Assembly (NCBI GenBank): GCA_002633005.1
Contig: NMRA01000081.1
Coordinates: 127,625 to 191,624, forward strand
Origin: Phoronis australis
Lineage: Eukaryota > Animalia > Phoronida
DNA length: 64,000 nucleotides
Direction: 5' to 3'
Part shown: positions 18,958 through 50,500 of the stretch, in pieces
Layout: every line of letters begins with the position of its first letter
Position numbering within the stretch: position 1 is the stretch's first letter
Made by a program: the position numbers and the translations under genes
The notes under the pieces: model-generated
Seen by the model: only the letters and a program-made list of their open reading frames with translations
The model's database searches: none
What the model was told of the DNA's origin: nothing

Positions 18958-18976
18958 TGTGTAGACTAGAGACGAC

Positions 18977-22133: not shown

Positions 22134-22197
<64 letters not shown>

Positions 22198-27790: not shown

Positions 27791-28685
27791 CGCCCTCTAT
27801 TGAGGAGTGGCAAATATTTTAAGGTTTATATGCTCCTTCCATGGGTGATTGTCGGACACACATCTGTGGTGGAAAATTTTAGTTATTAGTAAAACTCGCT
27901 GAAGTCGGACTTGCGTATTAAGTGCTATTTTTGCTGAACTTGTTCAAAGTTCTGTGATACGAAGTTTGTCCACTCAGCCTTTGAATTAAAGTGGATATTC
28001 CCTTACTTGGAAGGGATCTTTTGGTACGGTTGAATCCAACTATTGTGCGTTTTATTGAGTATAAAGTTTTTTTGGCCATGTTAACACAAATATTTACGAA
28101 GACCCATTAGTACCGTGAAAAAATAAAATTAAAATTTTTTAATATGGATTATCAATGTGTACTAATTATTATGGATTGCCAATCTTTTGATACAGATTGG
28201 CAATATGTAATAACAGATTGACAACCCATTAATACACATTCGGTTGTGTGTCTTGTTGTCAGAGAGAATGAGGGAGCTTATTCGTATATATTTTCATTTG
28301 GGCTTAGCTATGACGAGATTCTGGTGTCATTGTCGGCAAATCATAGTGTGTTTATAAGCAAGTGAACTCTTCAACAGCAGGCAATGCTTGCTTTCTTGAA
28401 GAACAGGGATCGGGATGCCTTCATGGTTATATCGGTGGATGCATTTGAAGTGTAATTACAAAATGGGCTGAATATTGACAGGGAATGTGCCGATGGTACA
28501 CAACTAAATTCTTATTTTTAAAAACGGCTAACGATGTAACACAGTAACAAAATAATAACGCCTTTCTTTCACTTTAACGATATCGACTCTATATTCAACT
28601 ATCACGTGACATGTGAGCATGCGCAGCAGTAAAAACACTCAGAAACAGTGGAACAGGTGCAAAACATCAAAACACTTGTGAAAAT

Positions 28686-29358
28686 CTCCCCCTCCTTAGT
28701 AAGTTGTGACTTATGAACCGCCTGAAAATCTACACTAAAGTTGGAATATAACTACACGCAATATCAAATATAACTATAGTCCTCGGTCCAGTCACTGAAC
28801 AGTTCTTCATAAATATATTGTCCTATTATCCATAAACATAATGTCCGATACAATCCACATTGTTTAAGCGAACTCCAATGGGCATAATTTTGTCACCTGC
28901 TGAGTGACAACACTTTCGTTTACACGCACTTTAACCACACGTACTAATCCATCAACGCCTTTCACTACTTCAACTATGCGACGTAATGGCCAATGTTCGC
29001 GGGTAACGTCCGATTGCATAACCAAAACAATGTCATTGACTCGAGTATCCCGCGCCACATGACACCACTGCTTTCGTGCGGTAAGTCCTGGAATCCATTC
29101 CTGTAACCACCGATTCCAAAAATGTCGCACAACTTCCTGTACGCATCTCCACCGTCTGCAGGGATTGAAATGCTCCTCATCGACTGACTGTGGTGCGAAT
29201 TCTGCACCACATTGTCCGTGCAAAAAATGATTTGGTGTCAACGGCACAACATCGCGCGGATCTGCGGACTGATAAGTCAATGGTCTGGAATTAAACAAGG
29301 CCTCTGCACCGATAAATGGCAAATTCAGTTTCTCGTCCTTCACATCCGCGCTTCCCAA
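28686..29358 (-). mobile_element. BEL/Pao LTR retrotransposon 3' end (integrase C-terminus/DUF5641 plus polypurine tract)
   Basis: NSRPLT...PLTPNHFL...RRWRCVQ...HFWNRWLQEW...WPL.RIVEV..G.DG.VRVVKV...KLCPLE. PPT GGAGGGGGAG on the - strand at 28686-28695. Confidence 0.9.
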
Positions 29359-29829
29359 TATTTCATAAATAGCACTGGATCAACCCGTAGTTGAGTAAAC
29401 GCAAATTTCCCGGCCTGGTATTGGATTTGCATGAGTCATAACTTCAGACTTGAACTTCAAAGTATAAACCATCGTTTATTGCAGTTAGTTCACAAGTCGA
29501 CAAGAAGAAGTTCAACCTAAAAACAATAAATAAAATGAAATTTAGAATATGAAAGACTAAGTAGTAGCCTACACTAAGTCATAATGAAAAATNTGGTTGT
29601 AGGATGGGACATATAATGCTTTGTCTAATAATAAACCATGGCCATTTGTATCAGTAAGTGACACTTTGGCACTACCTCTGGCTAACACTGTACCCCATGA
29701 TTTTGTTGCCAGTAAAAATCAATGAACACAACAGGCCTCATGGGTTGACAGGGAGTGACCCATTTATTCATCTCCTAACAAAAAGAGAGCATACATACTA
29801 CTACACTGGTGAACAATAGATGGCGCCAC

Positions 29830-30690
29830 ATGACGGACACAGCTCAACATCACGCGCTTTCGGTTGGCGATCATTGTTATTACGGTTTAATACCCTATGA
29901 GGGCTTTCTTTGCATCCGTCGATATTGCATACACGTGTTCTGCAACAATCCTGATCACGGTGATTGGACCCCAAGCAACGGAAACTTAGACAGAGCTGTT
30001 TAGCTTTTGACCATCGGTCACTAACGGATATTGATTTGAACACCTCGTGATTCCAGGGGCTGTGCCCAGGTTGACTACAGACTAAACATCCCATAACGTT
30101 CGAGTTATGTGTTATCATAGTACGATGCGGCATAGAACGTGGATGGGTATGGGGCGTTGCCGGCATTCAGTGGGCAGTTTCGCGTGCAACTGTGTGAAAC
30201 TCGGCCTTCTGAATAATGAACTCGTGCAATGTTTCCACCCATTCTCCCTTCTTCTTGTCGAACATCCAGCGTTGGAAATTAGTAATCATGGTCTCACTCA
30301 TTTTTTTAATTGCTTGTAGTAAAGAGACCCGTTTTCTGGTTCTGAGACCATCTCTTCTTTCAAATTGGCTACCACTACATCCAACAAATCGGTGTAGTCT
30401 TGTATGTCCTTGGCAGATTTTATCGGGCGAAATTTCTCAATCGCTTCAAGTTGGCTGGCTATCTTTCTGTGTTTGCCTCCATATTTTCTATCAAGGCGTT
30501 TTTTCGCTACTTTATAGGCTGTCGCATAATGACCCAGACTTTCGATTAGTTTAAGGGGTTCTCCTAACAAATATTGATGAAGTTGGAGCAAGTTATACTC
30601 CTCTGTTGCACTGGTTGTGTCAACACATCCTTCCCAGTTTTCATAATTTTTAGTATCTCCAGAAAATACCGAGATTAAAACCATGCAGTT
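29830..30690 (-). mobile_element. BEL/Pao gag fragment (DUF1759-like region plus Cys/His knuckles), frameshifted
   Basis: FSGDTKNYENW...LLQLHQYLLGEPLKLIE.LG....YKVAKKRLDRKYGG, and CLVCSQPGH...RWSKAKQLCLSFRCLGSNH...CNIDGCKESPH. Confidence 0.85.
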
Positions 30691-30898
30691 TTAACAATTT
30701 CCACGTCACTGGCAGTAGTTGCAACGTATTTTTAGTTGCCGCAGAATCAAGCTGACAGGGAACAGCACATAACGTGTCTCCTGTCACAGACAAGTTCAAA
30801 TCTGTGAATAACTTTGCAGGAGTATCGTTCTTTGACTGGTCGTTGACCATGAATAGAGAGACATTGAAGTATAGTCACTATCAAAATCAACGTCATCG

Positions 30899-31500
30899 TC
30901 ATTTACAGCATGCACTGGGTTCAACTTCTATGTGCTGCAATTTTAACTTGTCTTTAGTATTACGACAGACAACTGCAAAGTGTTTCGGGCCATAAGTGTT
31001 TGCAGAAAACTCTTGGTTTTGCTGCTGGGCAGGTTTTGCGGTTATGGCATTCAAGTGCCGCACAAAAATTACACTGTAGGTGTCATTTTTGCCCGTCGTG
31101 GGCGCAGAGGTCGTCATCGTTGGGACAATGGTACTTTTCATAATTTTTAGGACCTCGATAGGGAGGGCTAGGCGGAAGGCACTAATTTCGGCCGCATAGT
31201 TTGCCGGGTTCCACTGTTCATAACCCTCTTTTGAGAAATCTGTCCAGTCTTGCAAAGTACAAAAGTCATTGAAAAGTCCTAGCCACAACTCAACGGCCTC
31301 TGCTTTGTCGTCAGTGATTGTTAGGTTGAGTTTCGGTGGCTTTGTTTTAGCCATTTTAACATCCCACCGCTGCCACCAAGTTGATTTGTATCAGACAAGC
31401 AACGTGCACTTAGCAATCAACCATATTTATTACTCATAATTATCCCGCACCGAACACTCTGAGAGATGCTGCCACATGGCGAGCATCGCACACATTAACA
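30899..31500 (-). mobile_element. Gypsy-type LTR retrotransposon 5' end (short LTR, tRNA-Leu PBS, gag N-terminus)
   Basis: LTR starts TGT at 31500 and contains AATAAA. PBS TGGTGGCAGCGGTGGGAT (31361-31378) is complementary to the 3' end of tRNA-Leu. The gag-like ORF MAKTKPPKLNL... follows immediately. Confidence 0.8.
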
Positions 31501-31564
31501 GGTTCAATCCAGTATTTTTTTTTCAGGAAATGAAATAAGCTATTGTCCACACATGTATTTTTGC

Positions 31565-31720
31565 CTATGAAAAGGCATCCTCACCAACGACGCTAACTTG
31601 TGTAGCAGTCAGATATAGTTCGTCTTCATACACAAACAATCCACTGGCATGTTGTCTTATGGTTACTTCGTACTGCGATTCACATTTCACCAGGGCCACT
31701 GACATGTACATTGTGCCATG
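31565..31720 (-). mobile_element. Degenerate YqaJ/lambda-exonuclease-like fragment
   Basis: HASGLFVYEDELYLTATQVSVVG resembles the YqaJ xxGLxIxxxxxxLxASPDG motif. Confidence 0.4.
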
Positions 31721-32619
31721 CAGCACTACTGGTGTGTGGAAATGCTGTGGGAAGAGAAAGGAGTAACAAAGCTTGTTAGCTTCAGTCAACTGCTTAAAAC
31801 CAATTTTTGTCCATTCAGGGTCGATGCAGAAGTGATGCATATCTCCTCTATGCACGGTACAAGCCCTCAAACCTAAAAACCAAAGGTCACGTGAAAACAG
31901 ACCTGATAGATTTTCATTTCAACGTGTAATATATTTCCTGAAGACATAGGATGGGAGTAAACAAATAGTCTAATGGATATTTGTCACGTACCCTTTGCCA
32001 TGGCATTGGGCTTGGATTGTAATCTTTAACTCACTAACCGATACCGATTTAAACATTCAGCATTCATTGATGTAACTGTCACTGATAAACCTGTTAGAAA
32101 TCATTCCAAACAATAATACTGCTTTGATGTACGAAAAGATCCCGAGTGCTACGTCAAGTATCGTAACACGCATCACAACAAACTAAGATTAACCCGACTG
32201 GTGACTGCCGCGAAGTCAACATCAGTATCGCAGTTAACAGGCATCTGTAGAATAAACATGGAATAATCACAAACCTTACCTTTGTATAAGGTCGTGCTTA
32301 CATTTTCCTCATAGAAGCACCCTTTTCACGCAATCTCAGATTCAGTTGGCACGCTTACAAGCCATTTCACCTTGTATTTAAAAATTTAGAAATCGAGGCT
32401 GTTAATCTATCACCACTAGTAAACGCGCGCCCTCTAGTTAATGTAAATTTTCTGAATAGCCCCATTATAGTGTTAAGTCCACTGACAGGTGATCTATTAG
32501 CAATCTTACCGTCTATGTAAGCTTGAACGTGTTTGCTTGCCTCAGCTCCTTCGTTTTCCACTTGTACTATGTCCGATTGTGTTTCCTCATACAGTGTCAC
32601 GTTTGTTACCACATTTTAC

Positions 32620-33670
32620 GGAGACATAAACAACGTGGTTTCTTTCTTAGGCTGTATTGTCAGGAACTACTACCTACGGTGACATCTATCGGGCAACATA
32701 CATAACACCCCTCCACCTTAACTAAAATGTCCATGCAACAAATAACGAAGTATCAATAAACCATGTCTAAATCAAGATCAAGTGTCAAGTCTTATTACTA
32801 CACAACCAGTCTCTACAAGTCCAGTCTCTGTGGCTGCTTACGAATCTGCGAAGAACGTCTCACAGGTTGATCTGACTGTGCTGGAGATCTAATTGGTACA
32901 TTGTCAGACACTACGGGTTCCGTTTCGGGCACAGTGTCACTTGGCACACCGACAGACGGTACAGATATATCAGGTGGACACACAACAGGCGGACCCGCAG
33001 AAAAATCAGCAGAACGCATTTGATCGGCATGTCTCCGCCAAAGCACATTAGGCGCAGTCTCCACTCTATATGAAACTAGTCCTCTCTGCTCTTTAACTAC
33101 TTCAGGAACCCAATGTTTCCCAGAGCGATACGCACGGACAGCAACCCGATCACCGACAGTAAAGTCGCATTCCTTAGTTGGCTTAGAGTCACACATGCGT
33201 TTCTGAGCACGTTCAACAGTCGCACTTAAATTTGGCTTCACTAAATCGAGTCGTGTTTGAGCCTGTCTTCCCAACAACAGTTTTGAGGATGTCCCGTTGT
33301 TGCTTGGGGCATATTCCTGTAGGCTAACAGAAAATTGTACAGTTTCTTTAGCATCGAACCACTATCACGCTTGGATGCTTTCATAGCCGACTTAAACGTG
33401 CTGACGAATCTCTCAGCCAGACCATTCGTCTTGGGGTGGTATGGCGCAGATCGAATCAGACGGATTCCATTGCGAGCTAGGAAATCCTCGTACTCCCGCG
33501 AAACAAACTGTGGTCCATTATCGCTAACAATTTGTTCCGCCAAACCGAACCTTGCAAAGATTTGGCGTAACACATCGATTGTCTTCTCCGCAGTAGTAGA
33601 TTGCATGGGCACAACCTCGGGCCATTTTGAATGGGCGTCAACGAGTATGAGAAACATACTACCCATGACC
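32620..33670 (-). mobile_element. Gypsy (K02A2.6-like) integrase C-terminal half, PPT and start of the 3' LTR
   Basis: FLILVDAHSKWPEV...IFARFGLAEQIVSDNGPQF...SAPYHPKTNGLAERFV..., then WRRHADQMR. PPT AAGGTGGAGGGG followed by TGTTATG at 32707. Confidence 0.92.
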
Positions 33671-34860
33671 GTTGTGGTCTTGCTGGTATGGAAAATCCGC
33701 AGCTGAAGACTGAGAACTGTGAGTGGATGTGGTGGCGTCACAGGCAGACGTGTCATCACATTGGGTGTCAGTTGAGGAACGGTCGTAGGATTTATCGGAC
33801 TCATTCCGCTCGGGAAGACACGGTACGCTGAAAGCATGTGGTATGCGCGGCGGCAAAAGCGGGTTCTTGTCGCCTTCGGGGGAAGTGGTGTCTGCCGGCT
33901 GACCGCAATCCTCGCTGGCTGAGGCAATAACATCTTCGTCGGGAGAATATGAAGAACAGGCGGGGTACGTAGTACATGGTAATTTGAAACAATCCTTTTT
34001 GCGGACACGATAGGATGACTTCCGAAGGTGTGATCCGGCGAATTTTTGAATGTTGCACCAATCACCTTCAGTAGAAACCACTAAATACCTGTCACGGCCT
34101 TGTAACTTGGATGCGTCGGTTCGTAGGTAAATGATGTCACCTACGTCGATGTGAACGGTAGGAGCACTGAGTCCAGATGGTGTTTTCGACTGCTCACTGT
34201 GCGGGTGGTTTTCCGTGTGTAGCTCATGTTGGCGGGAGATTAGAGAATCGTCCGTGGGTGTCAAAGTCGTGTTGGTGAATTGGTCGCGTGAAGACTACAT
34301 TTCTCGTGCTGAGAGGCCTTGATTCCGAAGTCTGGTGTTGAGTTGAGCGACGGCCAAGGATAGTGAGAGTGGCGTAACAGCGCCACGTGAGAGGTCTTGT
34401 TTACAAGTTCACCTTCCAACTCCTGAATGGCACGTTCCTCGACAGGATTTTTGTTCACGTTTTTGGCTCGACCAACTTCCACTGATATGCGGTGGCGGTT
34501 CAGGAGCTCGTCACGTTGGAGGGTTGCAAAGCCGGGTGCGCCGTCGGTACGAATGACTGAATTGGGTCCATCCAGCGGGCGAAAGTCTACGCATAGGGTG
34601 AGAAGGCTGTCACGAAGGGTGGTGTGGCGCTCATCTGAGATCAACATAGCGGTGGTATATGAAGTCACGTCTGTCCAAGAGATCGTTTTGGTCGAATCTC
34701 GACCAGCCATGATGTCATCTAAAAGCGCCAACACGGATGAACAATCTCGAATGACGCGAGCTAACACTTTGTATGTGCCAACAAATGAACGTAAGCCGGA
34801 CACGCGGGCTGGAGGCGGGCAGCTGGACAGTGTGGCTATGCGATGTAGGTCACACTCTTT
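33671..34860 (-). mobile_element. Second, different LTR-retrotransposon pol fragment (RT connection fused by deletion to integrase)
   Basis: [12 protein letters not shown]...ISWT joined to IRTDGAPGF...[20 protein letters not shown] and GDIIYLRTDASKLQGRDRYLVV. Confidence 0.8.
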
Positions 34861-34884
34861 CAAAGCGTAGAGCACTCGTTTCTA

Positions 34885-37800
34885 CAGAGCTGCCACCCCC
34901 TTTTGATTGAAATACAGACTCTTTGACACAAAAATACAGATTTTTTTAGCCAAATACAGAACATTCCATGCCGATGTAGGGGTGTGATTGTTGCGTACAT
35001 TTTTAGGGCATGGGCAAGGCAAGTGTAAACGATCACGTTCGATAGGAAGCATACAATATTATTGTAAAGTTAAGTATCATCCTGAAAATGAAATACAATA
35101 CTCATATTGACAGAAAATATGGTTTATTTTGCAATTCACAAAAACATGTTTTTGTGACAGTCTTCTAGGAATATAAAATATTCAAGCATATCACTTAAAA
35201 CAATAGTCTATGGTTTTGTTCCTTAGACATCATCAGATCAATCAAAGTTCTGATAAAGTTAGTCAAGCCCTCTCAAAGATGGTGACATGGCATTAGAGTC
35301 ACCAACACTTGATCCCTGTAGTCCTAAATATGTTGCACTTTTGGCTTTCTTCAGGAACTCATGGGAAAATTTTTGTTCATAACAGGGTGTTTGTTCCGCA
35401 AAAGTGTTTGTTTTAACGATCAGCATATTCTCAAGCAATTTCAGAGATGTGGAAGGCCGAAAGTCGGTGTTGTTTTTACGGACAACACTAAAAACTCGCT
35501 CGCTGGCAGCATTGCTGTGTGGTAGCACCAACACACACAACATGACGTGACTCAACAGACATAATGATGGTTCATCTCTAAACTTGTGCCATGCTTCATC
35601 TATGCGGTCAGAATGAGGTGGCAAATCTGTCACCTGATAATGTGCGAATTGCCTTTCCAGATGATCTAACAAACCAGATGTTTCAGTTGGAATTCTTTCA
35701 CCCAGTATGTTCTCCAAAGACTCTGGCATTGTAGTTAAAATGGCTGGGAAGCGGACTACAAAATAACGAACTGATGCAAAGCGAGCTTTCCTCCTTTTAG
35801 AGATGTCTACCACTTCGGCATGAAGCAAGACATCATCATGAATTGGAAACTTGATTTAAAAGTGCTCAATTTTAAAAAATTAATTATGTAGCCTTACACT
35901 GTCATTGGGAAGAGTGATGTTAAAAAGGCCAACAACTAACCTTTTGTTTGTTTTTTTTCTTCCGGGCTTCATCGATACTCTCTGCTGCCTCAGTAGCAAA
36001 GAAATGTTGTAATAATGTGGAGTCGGTTGGCCGAGAGGACACACAAGTTCGAGCCTATTAACACGGTGCTAGAGCAAACTCTGGAGGATACTCACATTGC
36101 GTCCGCACAGGACGGCAGCGAACTCCAGAAGCCCCAGACGATCTTGTCACGTGGTCTCGATGGTTGACTCGTCACGTGATCGGAGTATGACCTCGGCTGG
36201 GCTCTTCTGNAATGTACAAGTTTCATTACAAACACATAATATTTGTTGGCGCACTTCAGTCCAAAAAAGGCTAAAGAAAAATAACCATGTTAACTGGTTC
36301 TTTAAACTTTTTCTTCTTCTTAGAAGAGTCTTGGGAGAAGATTTTATTTTCACAAAATCAGGTTGCATATAAAACTTTTAGCTCCACATTACTTTAGAGC
36401 TATTCCGTGTATTTCTGACATTTACAGCCTATAGAGCATGTTCAGATATCTCTGACGGAATTAGCATCACACATTCAAAGATTAAAGCACAAACATTCAT
36501 TCATTTCATGCCGCTCTCCCCACATTTTCAGTTCCCGGTCTTTCACCTGATCTCTCTCGTTCAGCTTCTCAACTTATAATATTTGATTCAATTTTATCTC
36601 GATTGTTTCATGATACACCTGCTTCTATGCGTAACCTCTTCAATCTGTTACTGAAACGGATCAAGATATGCTTAGTTACGTGTTAGGTTCAGTTATAATT
36701 AAATTAAGTAGTAGATATGTTTGTAATCCAGATATGGTTAAGTTCTCAACTCTTGGAAATTAGCTACTTCAGGAAATATACTTCCCCACAACAACCTGAC
36801 CTCTGTTAAGGGCAGAGGGGGCTTTGTGCACGTCGCAACTGAAGCTATGCTCTTGCTGAAGAAGGTTGAAGCACGTTTCAGGAAATTTGTCCAGGAGTGA
36901 AAAGTTGTTGATAAAGAGGTTTTTTTGAATTTTGTTCACACCAGTTAGATGACTTATTTTTAAGTTGCGTCTCACATTTGGGTGTAGAAATCGATACGGT
37001 TAAAGATGTTTTTGAAGACATCATCAAGCCGTTTTGCAAAATTCACATTCATCACAAAGTTAATATGTGTGTCAGCAACCACAAACAGAAAGCTTTGAGA
37101 AAATCATTGAAGGCAAAAACGCAACTTAACATAATCATACATGTACACAATACAACAAAAATTATTGCCAAATACCGAATTTTTGCAGAGGTTCTAACAT
37201 TGATAGGGATGCTACGACACCCTTAATGTGAAAAAATAATAACAACTTGTCACTTGTATGTCAAAAACTAAGCTAATCATGTCTGTGAACTCACTGTTAG
37301 TCCAGTACTTTCTTTTCTTCATAAGGGAGACCATGATACTGCCACACTTGGGGTGAACCCTCTTTGTATTGTCACAAGGATTTATCAGATTGGCAATTTC
37401 ATGCTGTAGTCGCAACTTGTTGTTTTCGTATCCTCAACATGTTCATAATTGATAAACGTTGTGTCCAAATCTCAATGTACCTACAAAATAAGAATTGCCA
37501 ATAAAATAGTTTCCAATGCCATTGTTCTTTATGTGGCTGCGCTGGTAACATATACTGTGCACATTGTGGTAAATTTCGTAGGCCAGACTGATATGGATAT
37601 TTGGAGGAAATCTACATGTAGGCTGCATTAGTCATTTCACTTAAATTGACTTAAGTCTATTTGATATTGAACTGCTAAATTTGGTGTGCACAACTGTGAC
37701 AACATCCTCACCCTAATTCAAACAATGATGGGTCGTCATTTCGCCTCCCATTAAAGAGCCCTGTGCTGTCCAAATCTCTCCTCAAGGGGATCTTGGCATA

Positions 37801-38273
37801 GCCGGTTGGTGAATACTTTCTGTATGCCCTTTCCTAGCAGGAACATAGCGATACTGACAACTGAATTTACTGGAAAAAGATTTGAACATTGTATTAAGTA
37901 ATGTAAAGTTAAACTTTTATAAACCTGCCTTCCTTCAAAAGGTAACTTTTGATATAGGATAATGATCATCTCTTGTTCTTAGTCATGTTACATGTGGTAG
38001 TAGGGTCCAGGTATTGGGGCTTGAAAAGAAACCGCTCTACCTAGAGACTTAGGCTCAGAAAGTTATTGCAGCGGTTCATTCAGTGTGTCGATTAGGTTCC
38101 GAACTCCCGCTGCTCCCCATCTTACNGCCGCGTATTTTCTATGATTTTAAAGACTTTAAAATACGGATTTTTCGAGTTTGAAAATACAGATTTTTCAAAA
38201 AGCGCCCGGAACACAGATTTTCCCTCTCAAATACGGAACGCGTCCCGTAAAAACGGAACGGTTGGCAGCTCTG
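34885..38273 (-). mobile_element. hAT DNA transposon remnant (TIRs plus transposase C-terminus at 35259-35828), interrupted by other fragments
   Basis: TIRs CAGAGCTGCCACC / GTTGGCAGCTCTG with AAATAC(A/G)GA subterminal repeats at both ends. hATC dimerisation motif LVLPHSNAASERVFSVVRKNNTDFR. The flanks do not form a TSD, and single n gaps lie inside. Confidence 0.8.
37725..37870 (-). mobile_element. P-element/THAP9-like transposase fragment
   Basis: VFTNRLCQDPLEERFGQHRALMGG matches the P-family signature R.xQDxLExxFGxxRxxGG. Confidence 0.75.
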
Positions 38274-38689
38274 CCATTGGACATACCTCAAACTGAGGGT
38301 CGTCAAGATTGGTCATTGGTGTATGGTAACAAATTTTGTTTTCTTTTTCTGAGGCCTTCTCCAGCAGAAGGAACATTGAGGCAGTCGAATACACGATCAA
38401 AAATTTGTACATACTTTGATGTCTGGCTGGCTTTTAGTACCACATATGCCTCCATGACGGATGCCATGGAATCGCTAATTGTCTTGAAAAATACATGTAT
38501 GAAAACATTTGTTACTTAAAGCATGTGATAGTGTGGTACCCTCTAACAGTGTACGAGTGCAATCCAAATGAACTCCAAATACTGTTCCATAATATTACAC
38601 TGTAATTACAAGGTTTCATAGTTATATATATCAAGCCCAAATGTTGAGGTTGTTGACTCTGATCTGCTCTTTAAAAAACCAATACCAAC

Positions 38690-39060
38690 CTTGGCCGCTA
38701 AAGGCACCCTCATCATTGTGTATGAAATAAGCCAAGGTGAGTTTGATTATGCAATGTCTTTTTTGGCATTGCAAGCCCATAACAGCACACAATGTGTCAG
38801 CCACTTACATTTTCCCAGTCGGATTTTCAGCAGCGTTGGACATTTTCGATATCAAATCAGCGCGACCGCTTAATACTGCAAGCAGACTCAAAGTCTTTCC
38901 AATTTTCTGCCACATCTCCTGTTAGGCACATAGGTGTGGGAGATGGGAGTTGCTACATAGCCATTTATCTCAAATACCACTGTTGAATCTTTGGTTAGAC
39001 ATCTACAATCCAGTTGGTTAAGATAATCAACGATTTATTCTACACTAAACAAAGCTACCA
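38690..39060 (-). mobile_element. Gypsy LTR end/PBS plus degenerate gag N-terminus
   Basis: The - strand shows AATAAA...caacag-TGGTA, then LPSPTPMCLTGDVAENWKDFE, a typical Gypsy gag start. Confidence 0.65.
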
Positions 39061-39289
39061 ACTTGCCATATAGAAAATACCGAGATATGTCTGTAAAAAG
39101 ACAAGAGAAACGCTGACCAGTTTTATTCAGAGATGTCAAGGAGATAACTCCATGAGTCAATAACATATTACTACAGACGTGATAACGGAGTGAAAGGTAT
39201 TTTTGGTGAAGGAACTCTAGTTTAACGCCATCATTGAAAATGTATGGTTTACTTAGGAGTCCGTGTTGGATATCAAAGGAGTCCAGATG

Positions 39290-40407
39290 TTAAAAGATGA
39301 AACCATAAACACTTTCAGACCCCACCGAATAGGTTTGTCCTTCATGAACTGCTTGAAACTGAATCTTGATTTGCATGGTGTCTTAGATTCATCTAATGCG
39401 ATTTCATGTTCAGGAGCATAGATCGACGTACAGTGTCCAATGACAGCATCCCATACGGGTCGTAGTTTATACAGTTTATCACAAAGTGGGTCATTTTTGT
39501 CAGTGACCATAGCGGTGTTGTCCACAAAATGAATATATAGTAAGGTGGCTAAGAACCGGTCTCGGGATATCGATTTCCGGAACCCAGGAGTTTCCGTCCT
39601 CCAGTGTGTGTTCCACTAATCCTGCATATTTCCTTTGCAAATGAGGCCCATGCAGAATAGCAAGCCAAATCAAATATATAGTTCCTTCATTGTTACATCA
39701 TGCCATTTCATTTCGTGTTTGTCTGGTGCACTCTGCCTTTCCTGATTGGCATATCAATTAGTCTGCACAACAATCAGCCTGATCAGAGCACCTGGAAAAA
39801 GCAGACTGAAAAACATACTGGGTGTCACCAAGGTAAGTGCCTCCTGTCCAGGTAAGTCATCAATGACTTGCTGTTTTGGCCAGGTGTGCTTTAATGGCAT
39901 CTTGCCTTTTGTTCACTGATGCACTCCAATCGTCTTTTTCGGGATCCTGAACGTCCACAGGCACGTCGATCTTGGGCATCCTCCAAATCGCCTGCGTCAA
40001 ACTCCACACTAACTTCAGTCTCACTATCTGAGTGCCGTGAAAATCGAGCTCGGGGTACATCGTCTTCACTGTCAGAGTCAAATTAAGTGTCCAAATCATT
40101 CTCATTCACATAATTATCCAGCAAATGATAGCGTTGTCCACTCTGAGTTTTCTCTCTTTTACTCCCACCATCTCGCAAACAAAATCCAACACTTCTCAAA
40201 ATCTGATAAATTCAGCAACAAAATGCACACGATTTCAAACAAAGAAAAACGTATTGTACACGTCATCAATCCATGTGTTACGCAAGTTTGAGAAGTGTTT
40301 AACCGTTGAAAGGTGGCAGAATGTGTATGTAAACTGTGACACGCATGTGTGCGTGTATCGGGTTATTGGTGATATCACGCCAGTTTGCGTGTACCCGTGC
40401 TATAGGG
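39290..40407 (-). mobile_element. piggyBac (PGBD4-like) transposon 5' portion, degenerate
   Basis: SRDRFLATLLYIHFVDN...DKLYKLRPV...IALDESKTPCKSRFSFKQFMKDKPIRWGLK. Terminus TTAA|CCCT on the - strand (TTAA at 40408-40411). Confidence 0.9.
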
Positions 40408-41549
40408 TTAATAAAATATTTGACTTGTTTCCTGCTGCCTTTTTGCTACCATAGTCTCTAGTTTTTCTGGCAGTTCATCAACGCAAAGTATTTCCCCATA
40501 TATTTTCTCACAGCATTGTTTTCAGCTTCTGTCCATGGTTGTCTCTCAATTTGTTGACAATCTTTTCCGTTAGACCCTTTTTCTTTACGAGACATTCCTA
40601 GAACAAACAAATTACTTTTGATTACCATGGAATCATAAGCAAATTTATGATTTTATGAAGTTAAAATATTATAAAATGAACCTAGGCAATTATTTTTAAC
40701 ATTTTGCTCTGCAAGTTGATTATTCGATGATATTAACAATGGCATAGTTAAGCATATCATCTGAGGGTGAAAGTTTTGAGTAATAAATAATGTGTTGTCC
40801 ATTGTTTAAATTGTTACTCTCAAAGTATTAAAATCAGCTAGAATAATAATTCTCATTGCCCATCCTTATTACACCTAAAAACTGGAACCTTAACACTGCT
40901 TAAATGAAAAAGGTTTCAACATATTGAAGAGAATTTTTTAACTTAAACCCTTCATGACGCTTTTGCTTCTTATGCCTGTAGAAGGAGGCATACTGTTTGC
41001 ATGACATGCCACATTCATCACAAAAAGAAGTGTTGTGCTGTGACGCAATGTGTCGCGTCAGGCTCTCTTTGTGAAACATTGATCACAGTTGGGACTCTCA
41101 GTGAATCGTCTTGGTTTATGAGCACGATGCTTTCCTGTTGTGTTTTCCTACATTGGTAAAAAAATCTTTATGCATGCAACGCGTCTTGAATCACAGGGCT
41201 GGTAAAGGTCTTGCTTGCTGTAGTGTCACTGTGTTTTATTGCCATGTGGTCATACTAAGTTAATTTCTTTAGTTCCTGAACGAAGCTCCATAACATACAC
41301 ACGCACTCCTTTGTGATATGCAGCAGTTGTACTACTCTTTTTTGAAGGCGTGGACTTGAATACCCTGAAAGACTCCTCTTGTGGCTGCAGTTCAACTGAA
41401 AAAATCGAAAGCCATTGCTTTCTGAGCTCTTTATTTTAAAAAATAAGCAAAAGCCAAGTATTATTTCCGATCCACGACAAAGGCTACACTCTGACGCTTT
41501 TCTGTGTGTCGCATTGGTGCCAAAGTAGCCTCTATTTAAGAAGAAAATG

Positions 41550-41800: not shown

Positions 41801-42625
41801 AAGATACTGGTAAAGACGTCTTAAAGCCCTTGTAGAACTTTTAGACAAGGTCAGAACATCTATTGATACTCCTTAATTTATAGCAGATACTTACATTCAT
41901 AAGCCACATTCGTTTATTTTTGGCCAAAACATTGCACATGTCCGCGTCCGTAATTGTGAAAAAAACTTCAGGTGGCGCTGTGCTGTTAACCGGATGTGTG
42001 ACGTCAACGTTTAGCCAAAGTCACTTCCCAATACCGAGTCTGTGTGTAACTCACAGGTGTAATGCGCATTGTCGGTGATATTTTCGATCGACAAAAGGGT
42101 GGCCGTCAAACAGACCCATTAAAATTGATTTGGTATCTTTTTAGCCATCATTTTACATCACCATAATTTAGTAAGCACATCCTAGGACGGGTGACTAACT
42201 CCGCCAGCGGAAGGGTGGATCACAGTCGACTTCGTTGGCGGGAGGTCGGGGAACTATCCAGTGGGCGGGGGTAAAAAAAAGATTTTTGCATGATTGCTGT
42301 ATCACACACTCGAAGTCAACCGCGTAGTCATATTTTACTGTGTTTCTCACTACAGTTTGCGTGGCATGCAGCACTTTCTGCTCGAAATGCGAGTTGCGAT
42401 ATTTTCCCGTTCACATCGTTTGTTTATTCATTTACCTAAAATTCACAGTAGCACACAGAAAAAACGTTTGTGAAGTTGTAGTACGTTATTTGTCAAGTAG
42501 ATGAACCTTTGAACCAACTATTATTTCTTGCATTTTGGACATTGAAGGCAGTGTTTTTCTATAGTTTCTTTTTCAAAAAGAAATTGAATGCAGACAAATC
42601 ACACTTGACATGAAGATTTATGTAC

Positions 42626-44390
42626 CTGCTTTCCATGCCGTGGAAATCAAAATGGAACATTTTTGGGGCGAAATGATTGACCAGGCTATGGTATCCTTCA
42701 ACACTGAACGTCTGACCTCCTGGTGCTAGGTTTGGTATGTCCTTCAACATCTGTCTACTTTCAATGATATCACATAAGCTTTCATACACTTCTGTACCTG
42801 TAATGTTTAATAAGACTTGCATGTGAATAATAGCTTCATGTTAATTATGAAATTGAACGGTGTTACAAGGAAAAAACGTACCCTCCAGGAACTAAAAAAA
42901 CTTCTATACAGTAAAATTGGCCTGAGGAATTGAATGTCACAATCGAGTAAACATTATCAACAGGTTCATTGAAGAGTTGTTTTGACTCAAAAACCCCAAG
43001 GTACCTTGTTACCTTGTATCAGCAACAGTTGAGTGGAGGCGAGACTAAAAGCAGGCTTTTGTTTAATTAAAATTGCTTTTAGGGGAGGTAGTGTGGCCCT
43101 ATAGGATAGGTTTTCTCTTCCTTTACTTGAGGTTGTGGGTTCGAGTCCCATAAGGGCACACTGCTAGACCCTGGAGTAAGGTCTCTAGCTCCTCAGCTTC
43201 ATTTTATCTATACATTAATTAACCACAAAAATGGTTTCACATGATAAGAGCAATGGCTCACCCTAGACGCCAACGCACTTCAGGTACAATGTCAATAGAG
43301 AGCACGCAATTACTTTTTAGTTGAAATTGTGAGTTCCTTCCTGAAAAACCTGCTCATAATGTTGAAACAAATCTTACCAGGTTGAAACCAGGGTTTTCGA
43401 TCCACATTTGGCTGAATTGGCAGATGCAAACAAGCTGGAAAATCTTCTCCATGCCCATGGTGAATGTTTGCTATGTGTCTTGAGAGACTCTTCCACTTGC
43501 CAAGACACACCTGTCCATTTCCATTGCTGGATGTGGCCGACCAATACAGATGATTAACAAAACTTCAAATCCAACGACCCACTGGGGCACAGGCAGGTTT
43601 CTTGGCGAGGGCATCAAGTTTCTTTACAAGACCTAAAAAACAAGGGTTTTTTATTTCTGACTGGTAGTGACAATTATGTAATATAGTTTACTGGTCATTC
43701 AGTTCTGTTAAGACATCAATTAAGCAGCAAGAGCAAAAAAAAATTCTTTGATGCCCGTACACATAGATCAACAACTTACTTCATAACAAAAATGGCAAAG
43801 AACCTAAACAATTATATCAAGAGATTATAAAATACAAGGCAAATCCACTAGTGATTTATGCAGTTGTAAGTAGGTCAAACCAAAATCGCAACCCAGCAAA
43901 AATAAAACAACAAGGGAATCATTCTGTTGAAACAACCATGGTACTATCTTGTATAACTAACAATGCTAACTCACATAAACAAAAGGTTCCACATACAACA
44001 TGGACTAAAATGATGTTTTTGAAAGGTGTCCTTGCATTTCAAAGGTGAAACTGAACCGTTTACTCGAGTGTATCAAATATGTAGCACGATGTTCAAAACT
44101 GGACATTCTTATAGTTAGCAAATTTAAAAAATGAGCAATTTCAGTTATTACTTTTTCCAAAATTGGCGAGATTTTATAGTAAAGCTTGCAAGCTAATGAC
44201 AAAAATATTACCTTTGGCAACATGCCATACATCAAAGTAGTGGCGCACACCTTCCCAATTCTCTCTAATCCACTTGGTTACCTGAGCATGTCTGTCCGTA
44301 ACTATGGACCTGACATTAGCTCCATGGCGATCCAATGTGCTTTTAATTCTTTTCAAACCTTCCAGTTCCATGTTGTATGAATTTCATAAT
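42626..44390 (-). mobile_element. Intron-containing DDE transposase remnant (probably Kolobok-type)
   Basis: Exons at about 44212-44390, 43378-43632 and 42626-42797 splice in phase: MELEGLKR...IVTDRH...HYFDVWHVAK|G...NHLYW...KWKSL..H..N.H...C.H...W|G...QTFSVEGYHSLVNHFAPKMFHF...MESR. One in-frame TGA. The superfamily call is from memory of these motifs. Confidence 0.7.
43085..43210 (+). mobile_element. tRNA-derived SINE, copy 3 (inside an intron of the transposase remnant)
   Basis: ggaggtagtgtggcc...gggttcgagtccc...gctcctcagct. Confidence 0.7.
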
Positions 44391-45005
44391 TGGTCTTTTT
44401 AAAGCCAAATATCCGATAAAATGACTACTGACAGTGAATGCTTACACACCCTTGCGCCGAAAAATGCCAGACAGTCACGTACGCTTCCAGCCAATCAGCG
44501 ACCATAATATGGGCCTTAACGAGAAAATTGTCAAATGTTTTTTAGCAGATGAGACCGGCAAGTGCTGAATGAAATACGTTGCTTGTGTACAATGCACATG
44601 TAACTCCTTAGATTGCGTTTACTGAGGCAAATGAAGTCCGGTGACACGCACGTGCTCGCTTACTCACACACGGCATTGCAGAACAGTCTTCTTTCTTCAG
44701 GTGTGCAGGTATGAAGTAGAGTAAAACTTCATGAGCGTACCAGTGTCGAGCTTGCAAAAAAAAGTCTAGTCGTGTTTTTTAACAAAGTTTGTTTAAACGA
44801 AGGGCTGCTACCGAACTACACTTAGCATACAGCACATTTCACCATAATCTTGTACATTTGATATGAAAACTTTTTTAAAAGCAAGCAAACTTAGATATGT
44901 AACTTATGGGTACAAACAACAGATTATATTAAGACATGCCAATGAAATGAAACATGCACCTTGCACAGACTCCTAGGAATACAACCAGACTCATTCTCTC
45001 TCTAT

Positions 45006-46370
45006 CTACAAGCGCTTCTTTTTTGCCTTATAACTAACTTTGCACAACTCACAAAACCATTCTTTACAACGAGGTGCCTGCTTTAGTCCCACATACAAGA
45101 AATGATACCACTTGTGGGGGCACGAATTATTGTCGCAACCTATTATTGGGTTATCGTCCTTGTGACCACATGAACAATCGTATGCTGTTTCACCTGCAGT
45201 CTTTTCTCTTACACCTCCCGATTTGATGTACGGATATACCTGAGTACACCAAAATTCCTGCAACTTTGGGACTACAACCTGGCCAATACTGTTGTCATAC
45301 GTAACAGTACTCCCAGAGGGCAGCCATACTACAAAATAGCAAAATTACGTTCCAGTAACAAACATTTGTAGTTGTACTTACATGTAGTACCTGTGATCTT
45401 TTTTTTAAATCAAACTTGTTGTCCAAGCACGAAGCAGGTTCAATTACACCTCTTCTGCGGCACGGACAATCGATTACTCCATCTGGTGAGGCTGCCAAGA
45501 ATGGATCCGTCTTGGATATGACGAGGCCCACTTCAAGAGCTGTCGCGCTGCAATTTCCGCACCTGCACTGAGCTCTGGCCACAGGTTCATGGTCCCTCCC
45601 CCACTTCATGGCCATAGTATCAACAGAACATGGTGTCTCACTAGCTATTCTAGACATTAAGGACGGAGCAGGGCTGACTTGGTTGTTGTGTACCACATCA
45701 TGAGCAACAGACAAGTTATTCTTCCTGCTCATTGGAGGTAGCAATTCATTGACAGCTTTTGAGCCTTCGTTACTTCAGTGACATAACTAACGATGCACCA
45801 TACTCTTCCATTCCTTTAATGGCGTCATCAGGTCCAGAGGACGACAAAATCAGAATGTGCACAGTTGGCGGTGGACGCTGTGTGGGTAATACCGGTGCCT
45901 TTGGAACGGAGTTTATCATGGATTGCCTGTATGAAAAGAAAAATAGAAAAAGACATGAGGGTTATGCTAACATAAGAATGTTGTTCTTGCGAACAGGAAT
46001 GGGGTTGATTCTTCCAAGCTGGTCTTTTACATTCATCTTTTTATTTCAAATTCTTCAGGTTAAATGGGAAAGACCAACATCACAAATGACATTGCAACTG
46101 TTCATTACTGGCAACGATAAAGTCGTCAGAGAACTGAATAGTTTAGTTACCAAGCATGAGTATCTCATTTTAAAATCCCAACCAACCTGGTGTTTCCACG
46201 AGGTATATGTGGGTGTCGCCAAATCTAATGTTTGGCCATTCTTTCGGGTCGTTCTTCCAGACATCATTTGGAAGCCTGTACGGACAGTCCTCCAATCCAC
46301 ACATTGACAATTTTGATCTGTAACGGGCATGCGACTTGCTTTCCAAGTCTGACGTATAATCGGCAGACAT
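45006..46370 (-). mobile_element. YqaJ-like exonuclease plus PHD-finger ORF of an ISL2EU/PIF-Harbinger-type (or related) DNA transposon, frameshifted
   Basis: N-terminal RYRSKL..C...CPY....W..DP.EWP.I.FGD...YLVETPG; MKWGRDHEPVAR...GLVISKTDPFLAASPDGVIDC; C-terminal ING-type PHD C.CG....IIGCDN..CP.KWYH...VGL...P....WFC..C. Confidence 0.8.
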
Positions 46371-46744
46371 AATGCGTAAAGAATTGAACTTCTATGTGAA
46401 TTTACTATCAGAGCAACACGTTGTTTCCACCTCGCTATATGGCAGTCTCCTCAGTAACTCGGGTGATGACGTCACTGTGTGTATGAATGCTTTTTATTGT
46501 GATTGACCTTCTGTTGTAACTGCTTTTCTTGCACCTTTGACATAAGTTTGGCTTACTCAACATCAATTGACATTGGTTGGCAGTCTGGCAAGGCAGTTGA
46601 GGTGCGTAGAATATCAATGAAGTCGTCACGCGACTTGATAGAATGTCTGCTTTGAATGTATGGCTTGATTAGTTAATCAAGGTGCTTGGAAATTTTATAA
46701 GATGGCGTGAGAACTTGTGAGCGTACGGGTTGCAAGCTGTTAAA

Positions 46745-47522
46745 TCATTCGCTAGTTATTATCCGTGTTTCGTTTCTTTGACGTTGTTTGATGTTGCGGT
46801 ATTGTGCAGCAACGCTGATGGGTGAGAAAAGTTGCACCGGTTGATTTAAATTGACTGCAGTAATTCTTTTCTTTAGAGTGCCTGTACTCAACTGCGCTGT
46901 TTTCTTGGCTAGTCGCCTTACTGGCCTACATTTTTCTGAGCATTGAAGACATCGGCCTTCTCCTGTAATCAACCTTTTATCTGTTACAGAAATGTTACGC
47001 CTAATTTTATACCATTTAGCATAATTTGTGTCTTTCAAGCATGTCCCTGGCCTGCTGTAGTCTAACGTTTCGATACTTCAGTAAAAATTGCACACATATA
47101 CAATCACTGTCGTAATCGCATTTCTTGATTCCGCCACACAATGCATGCTTGGAAGTTAGTTTTGCTAGTTGTTCTTCTAAATTAATGCTATTGTTGATCA
47201 TTAAATGCCTCAAATTCATCGCCAATGACATTCCCGTCTCCACAACACGCTCCTTTGCCATTCTTGCGCATGCCTCAAAGGACCCGTAGTATACCGGTAT
47301 AGCTGTGACTCAGTCGGCAACCACATGACTAATTTCTACTGCTAACTCGTATTGAAATTCTCCATACTTCAAAATTCTTGGTTGCAGATGCTGATAATTG
47401 CCTTCAATGATTTTCACAATAAGAGACAAGAAATCCGAGTTATCACACAGCCCCGCTGGCCTGCTGCTGCCTTCCATTTTCACTGGGCACCCTGCTAAAG
47501 CCGACTTGTGCAATAGCCGCAT
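46745..47522 (-). mobile_element. Degenerate TE-like ORF fragments (Cys-rich; possibly the N-terminal region of a P-like transposase)
   Basis: Consecutive - strand ORFs in shifted frames, with LCGG and RCLQCSEKC motifs followed by a basic segment. Confidence 0.3.
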
Positions 47523-50500
47523 TGGTGGTCAGGTGTCGGGCACAGGCCCATGAGGCAACTTGCAGCTACAAATTCATTACAAAGTCATAAAACCTTTTGC
47601 ACGCACAATTAAATGCACAAAACTTCTCATGTATTAAACCCTTAATTTAATGCTCAGGCTATCCGACGAGTGCGTGTTGAAATAAAACATTGACCTTGGA
47701 CCACCGATGGACTCCTCGCAGCAGGGCCCTAGTAGGAGATCTGACCAATCAGGTAGAACTGCGGTTCAAGTAATACACTGTTGGCACCTTACAGTTCAAA
47801 TTGGAAGCTCGTGCTGTATGACGTAGGAGATCCGAGCCTTATTTGCATATATCAGGGACATCTATTGGTCCAAAAAAGAGGATCGTGCCCGAGTACATGC
47901 CTGAGAAGAGGCGTCTTTTGCAAGGGTAAAACATGTCAAGTTCAAAGCATCTCAGCGCCATTAATATGCAATCTTTGGGGACCAAAGTGGTATAATGTTA
48001 TAGGTAAAGAGTTAAGCTCTTCAAACACAATAGTTGGATTGCAGCAACTTGAATATTCAGTTTTGGAATCACGTTTGAAATTGTTAAAATGCGTCAAAAC
48101 AGTTGTCCCTTCCTGGTTATCTCTTCCCGATATAACGTATATGTATATTCAACTGGTGACTAAAACACATGGTTGCAATACATGTGAGCATACCCTGAAA
48201 TACGACTGCAGACTACAAACCAGCCGATAGTGTCTGCTAGATAAATTGCACTCAACATGAAACACTACCTAAAATGATACATCTTAGATTAAAACTCATG
48301 TTTTGAACTTTTTGTATTCTGAATCTGGAATTGCCCATAAAAAGTAGAGTTAAGATCATTGTTTACTGAAAGAAATCCATAAAAATTATCCAAAATGTAT
48401 GTGTAAGGTTTCGGTTCTCTTTTACTCATTGGTGAATGGTTTTACTAACTCCTTGAATGAGTTGTAGATAATTGACCTTTAAGTTGTGGTGCCAGACTAA
48501 CAATCACTGGAACATTTAACAATAGACTAGATTGATATCTGGACTAGCCTCGTCTCAAGTTGAAACCAAAGGGGAGGTTCTTGTTTTTTTGCTTCTACAA
48601 TTTCTGTCAACTTCTTTAACATTTTTCACTTTCATTTCTCAATCAAACGATATTATGTCATAAGCTATCCTTTTGCATGCCATACTTGACTTGACCGTTG
48701 GTCAGTGTTATGAGTTCCGATTGCAGGCATGTACTTCCGTCTTCAGCTATGAAGAAGACCTAAATTCATTATTCTTTCTAAGTGTGTCCAATGGGTTGAC
48801 TGGTGGAGATTGTGCAAGTCTGTCTAATTTCACATAAGAATTATTCTTAAATTACAATTTTCAAATGCCGATTGCATTTTCAAATTCTGAACATTTCACC
48901 AACATTTTGTTTTTATGACGGCTATTCTCTAAACACCGTGCTTCTGATGAAGTTTTTTCTCATTGTCTTATGTTTGTTGAAAGGAAATGGGTGTACTTTT
49001 GTTGAAAGAAAAAATGAAATGACACATTATATATAAAACTGAAGAATATTAATACCAAAAATTTAGGCCCACTGTATTTTATCTCTACGTGCAAACTAAG
49101 TGTGTCAAGGAGAGCATAGCTATACTGTGTTGGTAACTGGTTGCTGTATGGTGGTATTGGGAAATTGATATGTGATTGGCACCCATGCTTTGGGCGTTAA
49201 CTTGTTTCTGGTGTTATGGTGTAGTTGTGTTGAAATGGAAGGTAAGCCTTTATACAAGGACATTACTTCTTTGTTAGTCAAAGTGCTAGTTGTACTTCTG
49301 ATATAAATATACATGTGGAATTGTTAGACTTTCTTAAACTAAGGTTAATATTGTTATGTTTTGTAGGACGTTTGTGTGTTGGGTGTTATTCAATGAAATA
49401 GATCCCATACTGAAATAGTGTCCCTCTCACATAAATCTTCAGGCTTTAAATGCATGTAACTGGCATGAATGAAGCAGTATTGAACTGGATGACTTAAGTT
49501 TTGTGATACCAATAGGTTCGTGCAACATAGTGAATTTGGTTTGCTACGGGTATTTCAGTGAAATTTAGAACACACTAGATATGAGTTTCTCACCACAGTG
49601 TAAACTTTTACCGAAACCTCTCTGCAATGGCTACTTTTCCATTCAAAATGCACTTGAAAGTTTTCGATTTTCGAAGACAATTGATGAATTTTGTAACAAA
49701 TATGCCTGTTTTTGTTGAAGTTGTGTTGAAAACCTAGAAAGAAACCAAGTAAAAAATGACGTGGAATTATTTGAAATTTACCTTAAATTTGTTCGTAATT
49801 TTGTAGAATTTATTGAGAAGAGATTTGTGCTTTTTCTGTAAACCGTTCTAGGCTTCAAAGAATACTGTTTTTGTTCCAGTGCATTCTGTTGCCTGCCGTT
49901 TGTATTGCAGAATAAGGTTACTTGAATATTGTAAATTAAATACAAGTTTTAGTCGAACCATAGAGTAAAGATGTTGCTCATGTCAGTCATATTGAGGTGT
50001 AGTTCTCGTTTCCCTGCAAATGTTGAGCATTGTGAATTGGAATGTATCAGAACTATTAGGCAACCGAAAACCATTTCACTAATTTATTCCATCATAGTCT
50101 ATTAACTAATACTGTTCCAGGCTGTGGTACAGGTCTCGCGTTGATGGAAGCTATGCCCCTGACATACTTGTGTCATATTAGGAGGCTGTTTCTTTGTTGA
50201 ATATGTTTGTTACATGTGTTGCATATTGTTATGTTGTTATGCTACAAATTGTTGTTGGTGTTTTGAAAAATAAACTGTGCTCTTAATGATTACACATTTT
50301 ATTTTATCACTTATTTACATTGAATAGATGTTGATGGTCATCAAGCGACCACTGATAGTTTTCACCACCACAACTACAACAGAGTGACTCTCGCATACAA
50401 TTGTACAACTAGAATTTTCTCTGAGATTACAATAAGCTGGTTGGACAGAGACGTAATCTTTTATGCTATGGAAACATTGTACCAATTCCCATTGCTTAAG

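Follow-up and report, generated by a model that had tools for sequence, protein, structure and literature searches.

Read-through piRNA clusters yield PIWI-bound RNAs of 24-32 nt with a 1U bias and phasing, and their output depends on the promoter of the upstream gene. The flamenco locus is expressed in the somatic follicle cells of the ovary.

Clusters behind genes, that is, gene-coupled traps for transposable elements (TEs), have been published for mammals (PMC11615739) and mosquitoes (Qu et al., bioRxiv 10.1101/2022.08.22.504762). As far as the available portions of these sources go, the mammalian piC-DoGs are dense, mostly antisense TE fragments, tens of kb or less in extent, directly behind a co-oriented gene with intact coding sequence and both proximal and distal poly(A) signals. 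The mosquito core clusters are uni-strand, carry antisense inserts right after a co-oriented gene, and have an RNA signal that tends to climb toward the end in oligo-dT data; what they capture is non-retroviral viral fragments, and their validation drew on chromatin profiles, PCR, and knockdown. The accessible text of van Lopik et al. (2023, PMC10643416) gives flam-syntenic candidates of 227-1085 kb whose one-strand TE bias is visible from sequence alone and exclusively Gypsy-driven, and that of Jehn et al. (2018, PMC6128900) describes Lymnaea piRNA clusters enriched for Gypsy, Kolobok, and hAT that do not mirror the genome TE landscape, with no mention of gene read-through or of how insertions are oriented.

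Here, we describe a block in a 64,000-nucleotide stretch of the Phoronis australis genome (the window) in which broken, non-redundant transposon pieces from about seven families lie heaped in a single orientation, with low-level RNA from the opposite strand. It starts directly behind a co-oriented, expressed RAD51AP1-like gene (stop at 27790, AATAAA at 28122), the first TE piece following within 0.2-0.4 kb, and is bounded by two genes at most 22.5 kb apart. We regard it as a candidate uni-strand piRNA cluster supplied by transcription running on from the RAD51AP1-like gene, with a probability of roughly 0.6.

The layout matches that of the published read-through clusters: dense fragments antisense to the gene as in piC-DoGs, the host coding sequence intact, and two poly(A) signals (here candidates), in the uni-strand arrangement of the mosquito clusters. 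Its TE content is unlike that of its flanks, much as in the mollusc clusters, and its strand bias can be seen from sequence, as at flam-like loci. It differs from the piC-DoGs, which hold LINE and ERV sequences, in being non-mammalian, DNA-transposon-rich, and known from sequence and RNA reads. The gene-coupled trap that the original prediction proposed fits the layout; its mechanism is already published, and no tie to the recombination function of RAD51AP1 emerged here. The block departs from flamenco-type loci, as far as PMC10643416 describes them, in size (19-22 kb rather than hundreds of kb) and TE make-up: the bias extends equally to BEL and to five or more DNA-transposon-type families, with BEL, hAT, P, piggyBac, PF20700, and YqaJ pieces on the minus strand too. 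Being small and not Gypsy-only, the block is not flamenco proper.

The features are as follows:

18123..27790, plus: RAD51AP1-like gene, about eight coding exons, candidate read-through source (last exon 27674-27787, PF15696 E 1.3e-9; remaining exons, bounded by GT-AG, assigned by eye)
28122..28127, plus: proximal AATAAA in the sequence, candidate normal poly(A) signal
28268..28390, plus: possible IS3EU-type transposase N-terminal scrap (by eye; no Pfam match)
28480..29379, minus: BEL/Pao integrase end, polypurine tract, and LTR remnant (DUF5641 at 28867-29379, E 3.5e-25; purine tract at 28697)
29804..30690, minus: BEL/Pao gag fragment (DUF1759 at 30301-30690, E 0.0057, below cut-off; Cys-His knuckle by eye)
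30900..31500, minus: LTR end, tRNA primer-binding site (PBS), and gag-like ORF (PBS-like motif at 31378, minus only; coding-like segment)
31517..32470, minus: a pair of adjoining pieces from multi-copy, expressed families that meet at ~31776 (depth reaching 71 vs 36, with loose ends and joints)
32470..33744, minus: Gypsy integrase, polypurine tract, and 3' LTR (rve at 33244-34080, E 1.2e-16)
33794..34914, minus: second Gypsy-type pol, unrelated to the first, RT end joined to integrase (phmmer E 9e-45)
34885..38273, minus: perfect 11-bp inverted ends around a hAT C-terminal piece and P-like pieces
38306..38515, minus: P-element/THAP9-type transposase piece (TNP-like_GBD E 0.0015, below cut-off)
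38860..39070, minus: LTR end, degenerate PBS, and gag N-terminal scrap (by eye; no Pfam match)
39100..40411, minus: piggyBac 5' end (TTAA-CCC; terminus 40400-40411) and transposase piece (DDE_Tnp_1_7 at 39256-39615, E 1.4e-19)
40460..41100, minus: C2H2 zinc-finger scrap (zf-C2H2 E 0.056, weak) and unassigned coding scrap; multi-copy by read depth
41480..41700, minus: another LTR end with PBS (PBS-like motif on minus only, at 41669)
42619..44395, minus: PF20700 transposase (Mutator-like), three exons, two introns, 5'-truncated
43068..43206, plus: tRNA-type SINE within a transposase intron (copies at 15060-15193 and 1824-1870 match at 78-85%)
44715..44822, plus: possible Penelope-like ORF start (by eye)
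45009..46400, minus: YqaJ exonuclease and PHD-like piece with upstream exon (YqaJ at 45298-45774, E 5.7e-9; PHD by eye only)
46490..47530, minus: two unassigned coding-like scraps (composition scan)
47531..50290, plus: T-rich tail without dispersed repeats, candidate distal RNA end (AT skew -0.072; ends at AATAAA 50269)

Every stop-to-stop ORF of at least 40 aa between 28.0 and 48.0 kb was compared with Pfam (n=249, 117 minus and 132 plus; six N-containing ORFs were omitted and five N-free parts of these added). TE families were matched by 8/117 minus ORFs, four of which score below the curated cut-off, and by 0/132 plus ORFs. For the block, a blind composition scan returned 15 minus versus 3 plus segments (~1.7 per block under the null); all three plus segments sit opposite stronger minus segments, as shadows, and the coding-like minus segments total ~7.5 kb within 19 kb. 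Comparison with homologues confirms the two Gypsy pol pieces and the three-exon PF20700 transposase, all minus. Outside the block, none of 261 ORFs (nearly all of at least 50 aa; four with N omitted) matched a TE family, and the rest of the window is indeed nearly free of TE coding sequence, two pieces having been noted by eye.

The orientation bias of the block is real, with a chance figure of p ~0.004-0.07 in place of the 5e-4 first proposed. Two-sided binomial p-values, with no correction for how many windows were scanned, are 0.008 for 8/8, 0.004 for 14/16, and 0.065 for 9/11, the last setting nine tool-supported minus pieces against two of up to three plus pieces. The count of about 12 independent insertions would fall if the BEL gag and integrase pieces, which stand in element order, are one insertion, as they may be. 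All eight Pfam-matched ORFs are minus. Exceptions are the plus-strand SINE, the one plus element noted in the original prediction, and two further possible plus pieces read by eye. By their motifs, these two may be IS3EU-like (28268-28390, just left of the block start at 28480) and Penelope-like (44715-44822; best ESM Atlas score 0.81, uninformative, and no Pfam match).

Among the retroelement pieces, the gag-like ORF at 30.9 kb had no Pfam match and no relative in viral_contigs, and the right-hand piece of 31517..32470 contains a minus-strand GT-AG intron (32278-31875) and carries a putative "YqaJ-like" label. The first Gypsy integrase has 13 related loci at 37-63% identity, a count that leaves out "plus-strand" tblastn rows, which are antisense shadow ORFs. 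The second pol is a genuine Gypsy-type piece; its tblastn match runs over P0001 residues 263-328 and then 684-914, indicating an internal RT-to-integrase deletion. LTRs common to different block pieces were sought and none was found; hence no intact LTR element and no simple 5'/3' pairing is shown. Database searches gave no support to the three LTR-PBS-gag pieces, the 31.5-32.5 kb label, or the PHD, which were named from PBS-like motifs (minus only), the minus GT-AG intron, and further motifs.

The hAT transposase C-terminal piece lies at 35262-35855 on the minus strand (Dimer_Tnp_hAT E 3.2e-4), and no target duplication was seen at the 11-bp inverted ends. By eye, the P-type piece probably continues at 37870-37754, a stretch without a Pfam match; PDB searches gave no support for the P-like pieces. 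The PF20700 transposase has 14 homologues (best E 2.5e-13), its exons are collinear by tblastn, and a minus ORF at 44177-44383 matches MULE in Pfam (E 0.012). The predicted spliced transposase therefore stands as three collinear minus exons, while the superfamily name "Kolobok" is unconfirmed, the Pfam family being Mutator-like; a literature word search found no papers joining Kolobok with YqaJ or PF20700. For the YqaJ ORF, a homologous-protein search gave no match, and the scraps at 46490..47530 had no Pfam match and nothing usable in ESM Atlas.

The block spans 35% of the window length, yet of the 28 dispersed-repeat intervals in the window only one, the SINE, lies inside it (p ~1e-4). Each TE family is present once, and no internal repeat pairs were found within the block. 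ARAGORN found no tRNA genes, and the four Rfam matches were sub-threshold, with none in the block. For the downstream gene, a protein search found no homologue of its exon, and a synteny search found no relative in metagenome_contigs. Also outside the block, a decayed LINE piece (~3020-4030) and a Penelope-like endonuclease piece (~2100-2480) can be read by eye.

Helitrons can capture co-oriented fragments, and at their 3' end a hairpin precedes CTRR, with AT as the target. The block could be the cargo of one large Helitron-like element, the insertions then not being independent; the pieces are short, adjoin one another, retain introns, and show no target duplications, and two source loci meet at 31776, all of which would suit such an origin. 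It is nevertheless very unlikely, as many pieces retain their own termini (PBS, polypurine tract, TTAA-CCC, inverted ends), the block ORF scan gave no Rep/helicase match, the hairpin-CTRR-T end occurs 0 times in the block on either strand and once elsewhere in the window (one criteria set), and most bins are shallow in the RNA runs, a measure of RNA depth and not of DNA copy number. More improbable still is an assembly artefact concatenating repeat fragments. The assembly is of short-read style, with a 743-N gap outside the block and single Ns within it, and no single record spans the block; however, no N-gap lies in the block, mis-joining would not orient the pieces, and the RNA described below covers all low-depth bins in two runs.

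Three raw-read runs with the same species label (X1, X2, and X3, the first two from one study) were aligned at 90% identity to positions 27600-47599. Library polarity is fixed because 22/22 spliced reads over two minus-strand GT-AG introns agree in one mate orientation. Plus-strand (TE-antisense) RNA was present in 22/22 low-depth bins of X1 and X2, at ~76% of depth, and was weak in X3. It exceeded minus RNA in 19/22 of these bins in X1 and X2 alike (sign p 0.0009 each), and nine bins had plus RNA with almost no minus RNA, whereas in X3 the difference between strands was not significant (p 0.61; 9 vs 6 bins). The predicted plus-strand RNA is therefore seen across the block at low depth (~0.75-0.93 reads per kb per million) in X1 and X2, without significant bias in X3. 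Reads at least 99% alike numbered 130/2042 (X1) and 185/2031 (X2); as reads were aligned at 90% and strand was not split by identity class, some plus reads may stem from other loci.

These data bear on the idea of a chance pile in a tolerant intergenic gap, selected from many windows, its plus RNA being background or from other loci. The p-values are 0.004-0.07 before correction, the left boundary leaves out a possible plus piece, and the reads cover 27600-47599 only; against this, the RNA strand bias, a line of evidence separate from the sequence reading, has the predicted direction in 19/22 bins of both X1 and X2, and dispersed repeats are depleted, leaving such a pile a slim prospect.

Depth rises weakly toward the 3' end in X1 (Spearman 0.43, p 0.044), a trend also reported for the mosquito clusters, and not significantly in X2 (p 0.12). 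The RAD51AP1 last-exon bin contains plus RNA (depth 0.4, 0.31, and 0.09) but no more of it than the block, as would also be expected with a separate promoter.

In an unlikely alternative, the block would be a long 3' UTR or a zone of leaky read-through with no piRNA role, where sense insertions, by terminating or splicing the transcript, are purged and antisense ones tolerated. Such a bias through termination by sense TEs is established in human genes, according to the available part of PMC3517506; the plus RNA and the T-rich tail to AATAAA 50269 fit equally well, and old MITEs could be missing because the block postdates those families. Purifying selection covers orientation but not accumulation, that is, the density of minus coding-like segments beside flanks without a TE-family match. 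Moreover, every family is present once, and neither AATAAA (9 on plus vs 14 on minus) nor splice signals are depleted on the plus strand.

In the preferred reading of a read-through piRNA cluster, Pol II would in some tissues pass the proximal poly(A) signal at 28122 and cross the block, probably to AATAAA 50269, which faces the next gene's 3' end. The long RNA would then be processed into phased piRNAs that are antisense to the BEL, Gypsy, hAT, P, piggyBac, PF20700, and YqaJ-type families. Antisense insertions would be kept since they silence their own family and sense insertions lost, and later deletions would trim every insertion to a short piece. More tentatively, and with some doubt, the locus may be a curated one-copy-each antisense catalogue, in which selection keeps, downstream of a housekeeping gene, a short, mostly coding piece per active retro- or DNA-transposon family and excludes the non-coding MITEs and SINEs abundant in neighbouring introns.

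Broad word searches of the open-access literature found no read-through piRNA cluster at a RAD51AP1 locus and none clearly in a marine invertebrate. A compact 19-22 kb locus whose junctions are unique, whose flanks are known, and which has a promoter upstream would be a convenient place to test the trap model: are pieces gained stepwise, why is there one per family, and why are DNA transposons as strictly oriented as LTR elements? Sister copies of several block pieces show TE-sense expression (depth 71 vs 36 at 31.6-32.3 kb); targets for an antisense RNA therefore exist.

The window is intron-rich animal DNA (GC about 38%), and the block at 28480-47530, a heap of broken transposable element (TE) pieces, lies between two convergent genes:

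18123-27790, + strand, RAD51AP1-like gene, about eight coding exons, read by eye
50698-60600, - strand, CLAMP / CABCOCO1-like gene, PF14769 matches at 55933-57434 (E 2e-16)

The RAD51AP1-like gene closes with a RAD51-interacting motif (PF15696, E 1.3e-9) and has an AATAAA 3' of it at 28122 in the sequence, while the CLAMP-family gene ends near 50.3 kb; with these two genes flanking it, the block can occupy no more than the roughly 22 kb between them. The 3' end of the latter gene and a + strand AATAAA at 50269 are convergent, about 30 bases apart. Exon 23972-24082 (+) of the RAD51AP1-like gene presumably encodes a ubiquitin-interacting-motif-like helix. A coding exon at 1-330 (-), whose translation we take to resemble the start of an SLC45-type transporter, belongs to a gene placed head-to-head with the RAD51AP1-like gene, with some 18 kb between them.

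The original reading was that the TE pieces of readable polarity share a single, minus orientation. A Pfam scan treating both strands alike covered 249 ORFs of at least 40 aa in 28-48 kb (117 minus, 132 plus), with six N-containing ORFs excluded and five N-free parts of ORFs included. TE-family matches were found in 8 of the 117 minus ORFs (BEL integrase end, BEL gag, rve, hAT, P-type GTP-binding domain, piggyBac, MULE, and YqaJ) and in 0 of the 132 plus ORFs, four of the eight falling short of the curated Pfam cut-off; Fisher's test, computed with 118 minus ORFs, gives p of about 0.002, where ORFs are not equivalent to independent insertions. A blind amino-acid composition scan of the block returned 15 minus segments (7.5 kb) versus 3 plus segments, each of the latter opposite a stronger minus segment, and a shuffled-sequence null gives about 1.7 segments per block. 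All PBS-like motifs lie on the minus strand.

The orientation holds for the Pfam-matched coding pieces, but not for every element. The SINE (43068-43206), the sole + element noticed at first, does lie on the + strand within an intron of the spliced transposase, and two more possible + pieces were seen by eye. These are 44715-44822, which by its motif we take to be Penelope-like and for which database searches gave no support, and about 28268-28390, presumably IS3EU-like by its motif, just beyond the left boundary first drawn. The chance level of co-orientation, put earlier at 5e-4, was too small: binomial p is 0.008 (8/8), 0.004 (14/16), or 0.065 (9/11) depending on the counting scheme, uncorrected for window selection. 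Chance as the source of the bias is improbable.

Elsewhere in the window, TE coding sequence is nearly absent, as had been proposed (0 of 261 ORFs outside the block had TE-family Pfam matches). Two decayed non-LTR scraps at 2.1-4.0 kb, both Pfam-negative, were seen by eye:

2100-2480, - strand, decayed Penelope-like GIY-YIG scrap
3020-4030, - strand, decayed LINE-like scrap

Among the individual pieces, the second, Gypsy-type pol (33794-34914, -) has a phmmer match at E 9e-45 and is missing the central part of the polyprotein, and the first Gypsy integrase (32470-33744, -) has 13 related loci. The spliced transposase (42619-44395) is on the minus strand, as first read, with three collinear exons and matches to 14 proteins, nine of them marked PF20700. 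For one transposase, the closest relatives with a name come from a crinoid and bivalves (55-62% identity), which makes a marine invertebrate the likely source. The three LTR-PBS-gag pieces, the 31.5-32.5 kb piece, the PHD, and several scraps found no support in database searches. The two BEL pieces may be a single insertion; between them, 29400-29470 (-) is presumably a short helix-turn-helix-like scrap of pogo/Brinker type. Inverted ends at 34885-38273, of hAT type and perfect over 11 bp, enclose the hAT piece together with the continuation of a P-like gene. The upstream part of that gene is found beyond them, which implies that a rearrangement followed insertion and that the pieces are not simply nested.

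Self-comparison found no repeated piece and no LTR pair inside the block, each TE family being present as one copy. Only 1 of the 28 dispersed-repeat intervals of the window falls in 28150-50300 (binomial p about 1e-4), where such repeats make up 0.6% of bases versus 13.6% outside; the block consists of coding scraps, without the MITEs and SINEs of neighbouring introns. A block younger than those repeat families, which are 68-94% diverged, would also explain this scarcity. That the block is cargo of one large element is about as improbable as chance, and the lack of any Helitron-type end in it, under the criteria applied, argues against such cargo; a mis-assembly is less probable still. The TE pieces here form a non-redundant collection on the minus strand, and several have expressed sister copies.

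RNA data comprised three raw-read runs of one study (X1, X2, and X3) and one contig set under the same species label. Reads were aligned to 27600-47599 only, at 90% identity, using about 18-19% of each raw run. Reads spliced over two minus-strand GT-AG transposase introns had the first mate on + in 22 of 22 cases, so a first mate on - marks + strand RNA, antisense to the TE pieces. Eight of 30 bins were excluded for high depth (multi-copy families); in five of these the TE-sense strand dominates (X1). In the remaining 22, both X1 and X2 show + RNA throughout, and in 19 bins of either run it outweighs - RNA (76-77% of depth; sign p 0.0009), though the two runs, being from the same study, are not independent. 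The predicted + strand RNA is thus present at a low level in these two runs, but X3 has it in 11 of 22 bins with no significant bias (+ higher in 9 versus 6; p 0.61). When every bin is counted, + RNA has the greater depth in 22, 24, and 10 of the 30 (X1, X2, X3); in the same order, its level amounts to about 0.75, 0.93, and 0.28 reads per kb per million. These strand figures call for caution, as only 130 of 2042 (X1) and 185 of 2031 (X2) aligned reads are at least 99% alike, strand not being split by identity class. The feature is real, and the stranded RNA is modest new support.

Depth in the RAD51AP1 last-exon bin (0.4, 0.31, and 0.09) is not above that of the block and is lowest in the run with the lowest block depth. 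The rise toward 3' is weak (Spearman 0.43, p 0.044 in X1; 0.34, p 0.12 in X2), and no AATAAA depletion was found on the + strand (9 versus 14 on -).

The block is most likely a read-through uni-strand piRNA cluster, which is a known kind of locus. Transcription would pass the proximal signal to the distal one near 50269, the RNA would be processed into piRNAs, and antisense insertions would be selectively retained and then shortened by deletion; we give this joint mechanism a probability of roughly 60%. A transcribed 3' region that merely purges sense insertions (PMC3517506) would account for the orientation, yet it leaves the accumulation unaccounted for and is rather unlikely. In layout the block resembles both mammalian piC-DoGs (PMC11615739) and mosquito read-through core clusters (bioRxiv 10.1101/2022.08.22.504762), and it is a putative member of this class, whose defining product is piRNA. 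The proposed likeness to flamenco survives in the uni-strand bias, but not in the size and Gypsy-only bias of flam-like clusters (PMC10643416). The make-up of the block recalls piRNA clusters of Lymnaea (PMC6128900), and uni-strand clusters prevail in Nematostella (402 of 457; PMC5731801). PMC8557442 and PMC12479628 gave no further decisive evidence, and among the publications listed RAD51AP1 and piRNA clusters came up together in a single review, which mentions each of them once.

At 38986-39068, 30-37 + strand reads of X3 carry several fixed differences and evidently come from another locus where the LTR piece is also read antisense. MITE-like large imperfect palindromes (arms up to 167 nt) lie at 16460-17199, 18263-19098, and 59544-60051, and a complex repeat family, in which degenerate units of some 430-500 bp stand in tandem, occurs at 51280-52850, 8096-9650, and 19550-20170 and flanks a 743-N gap.
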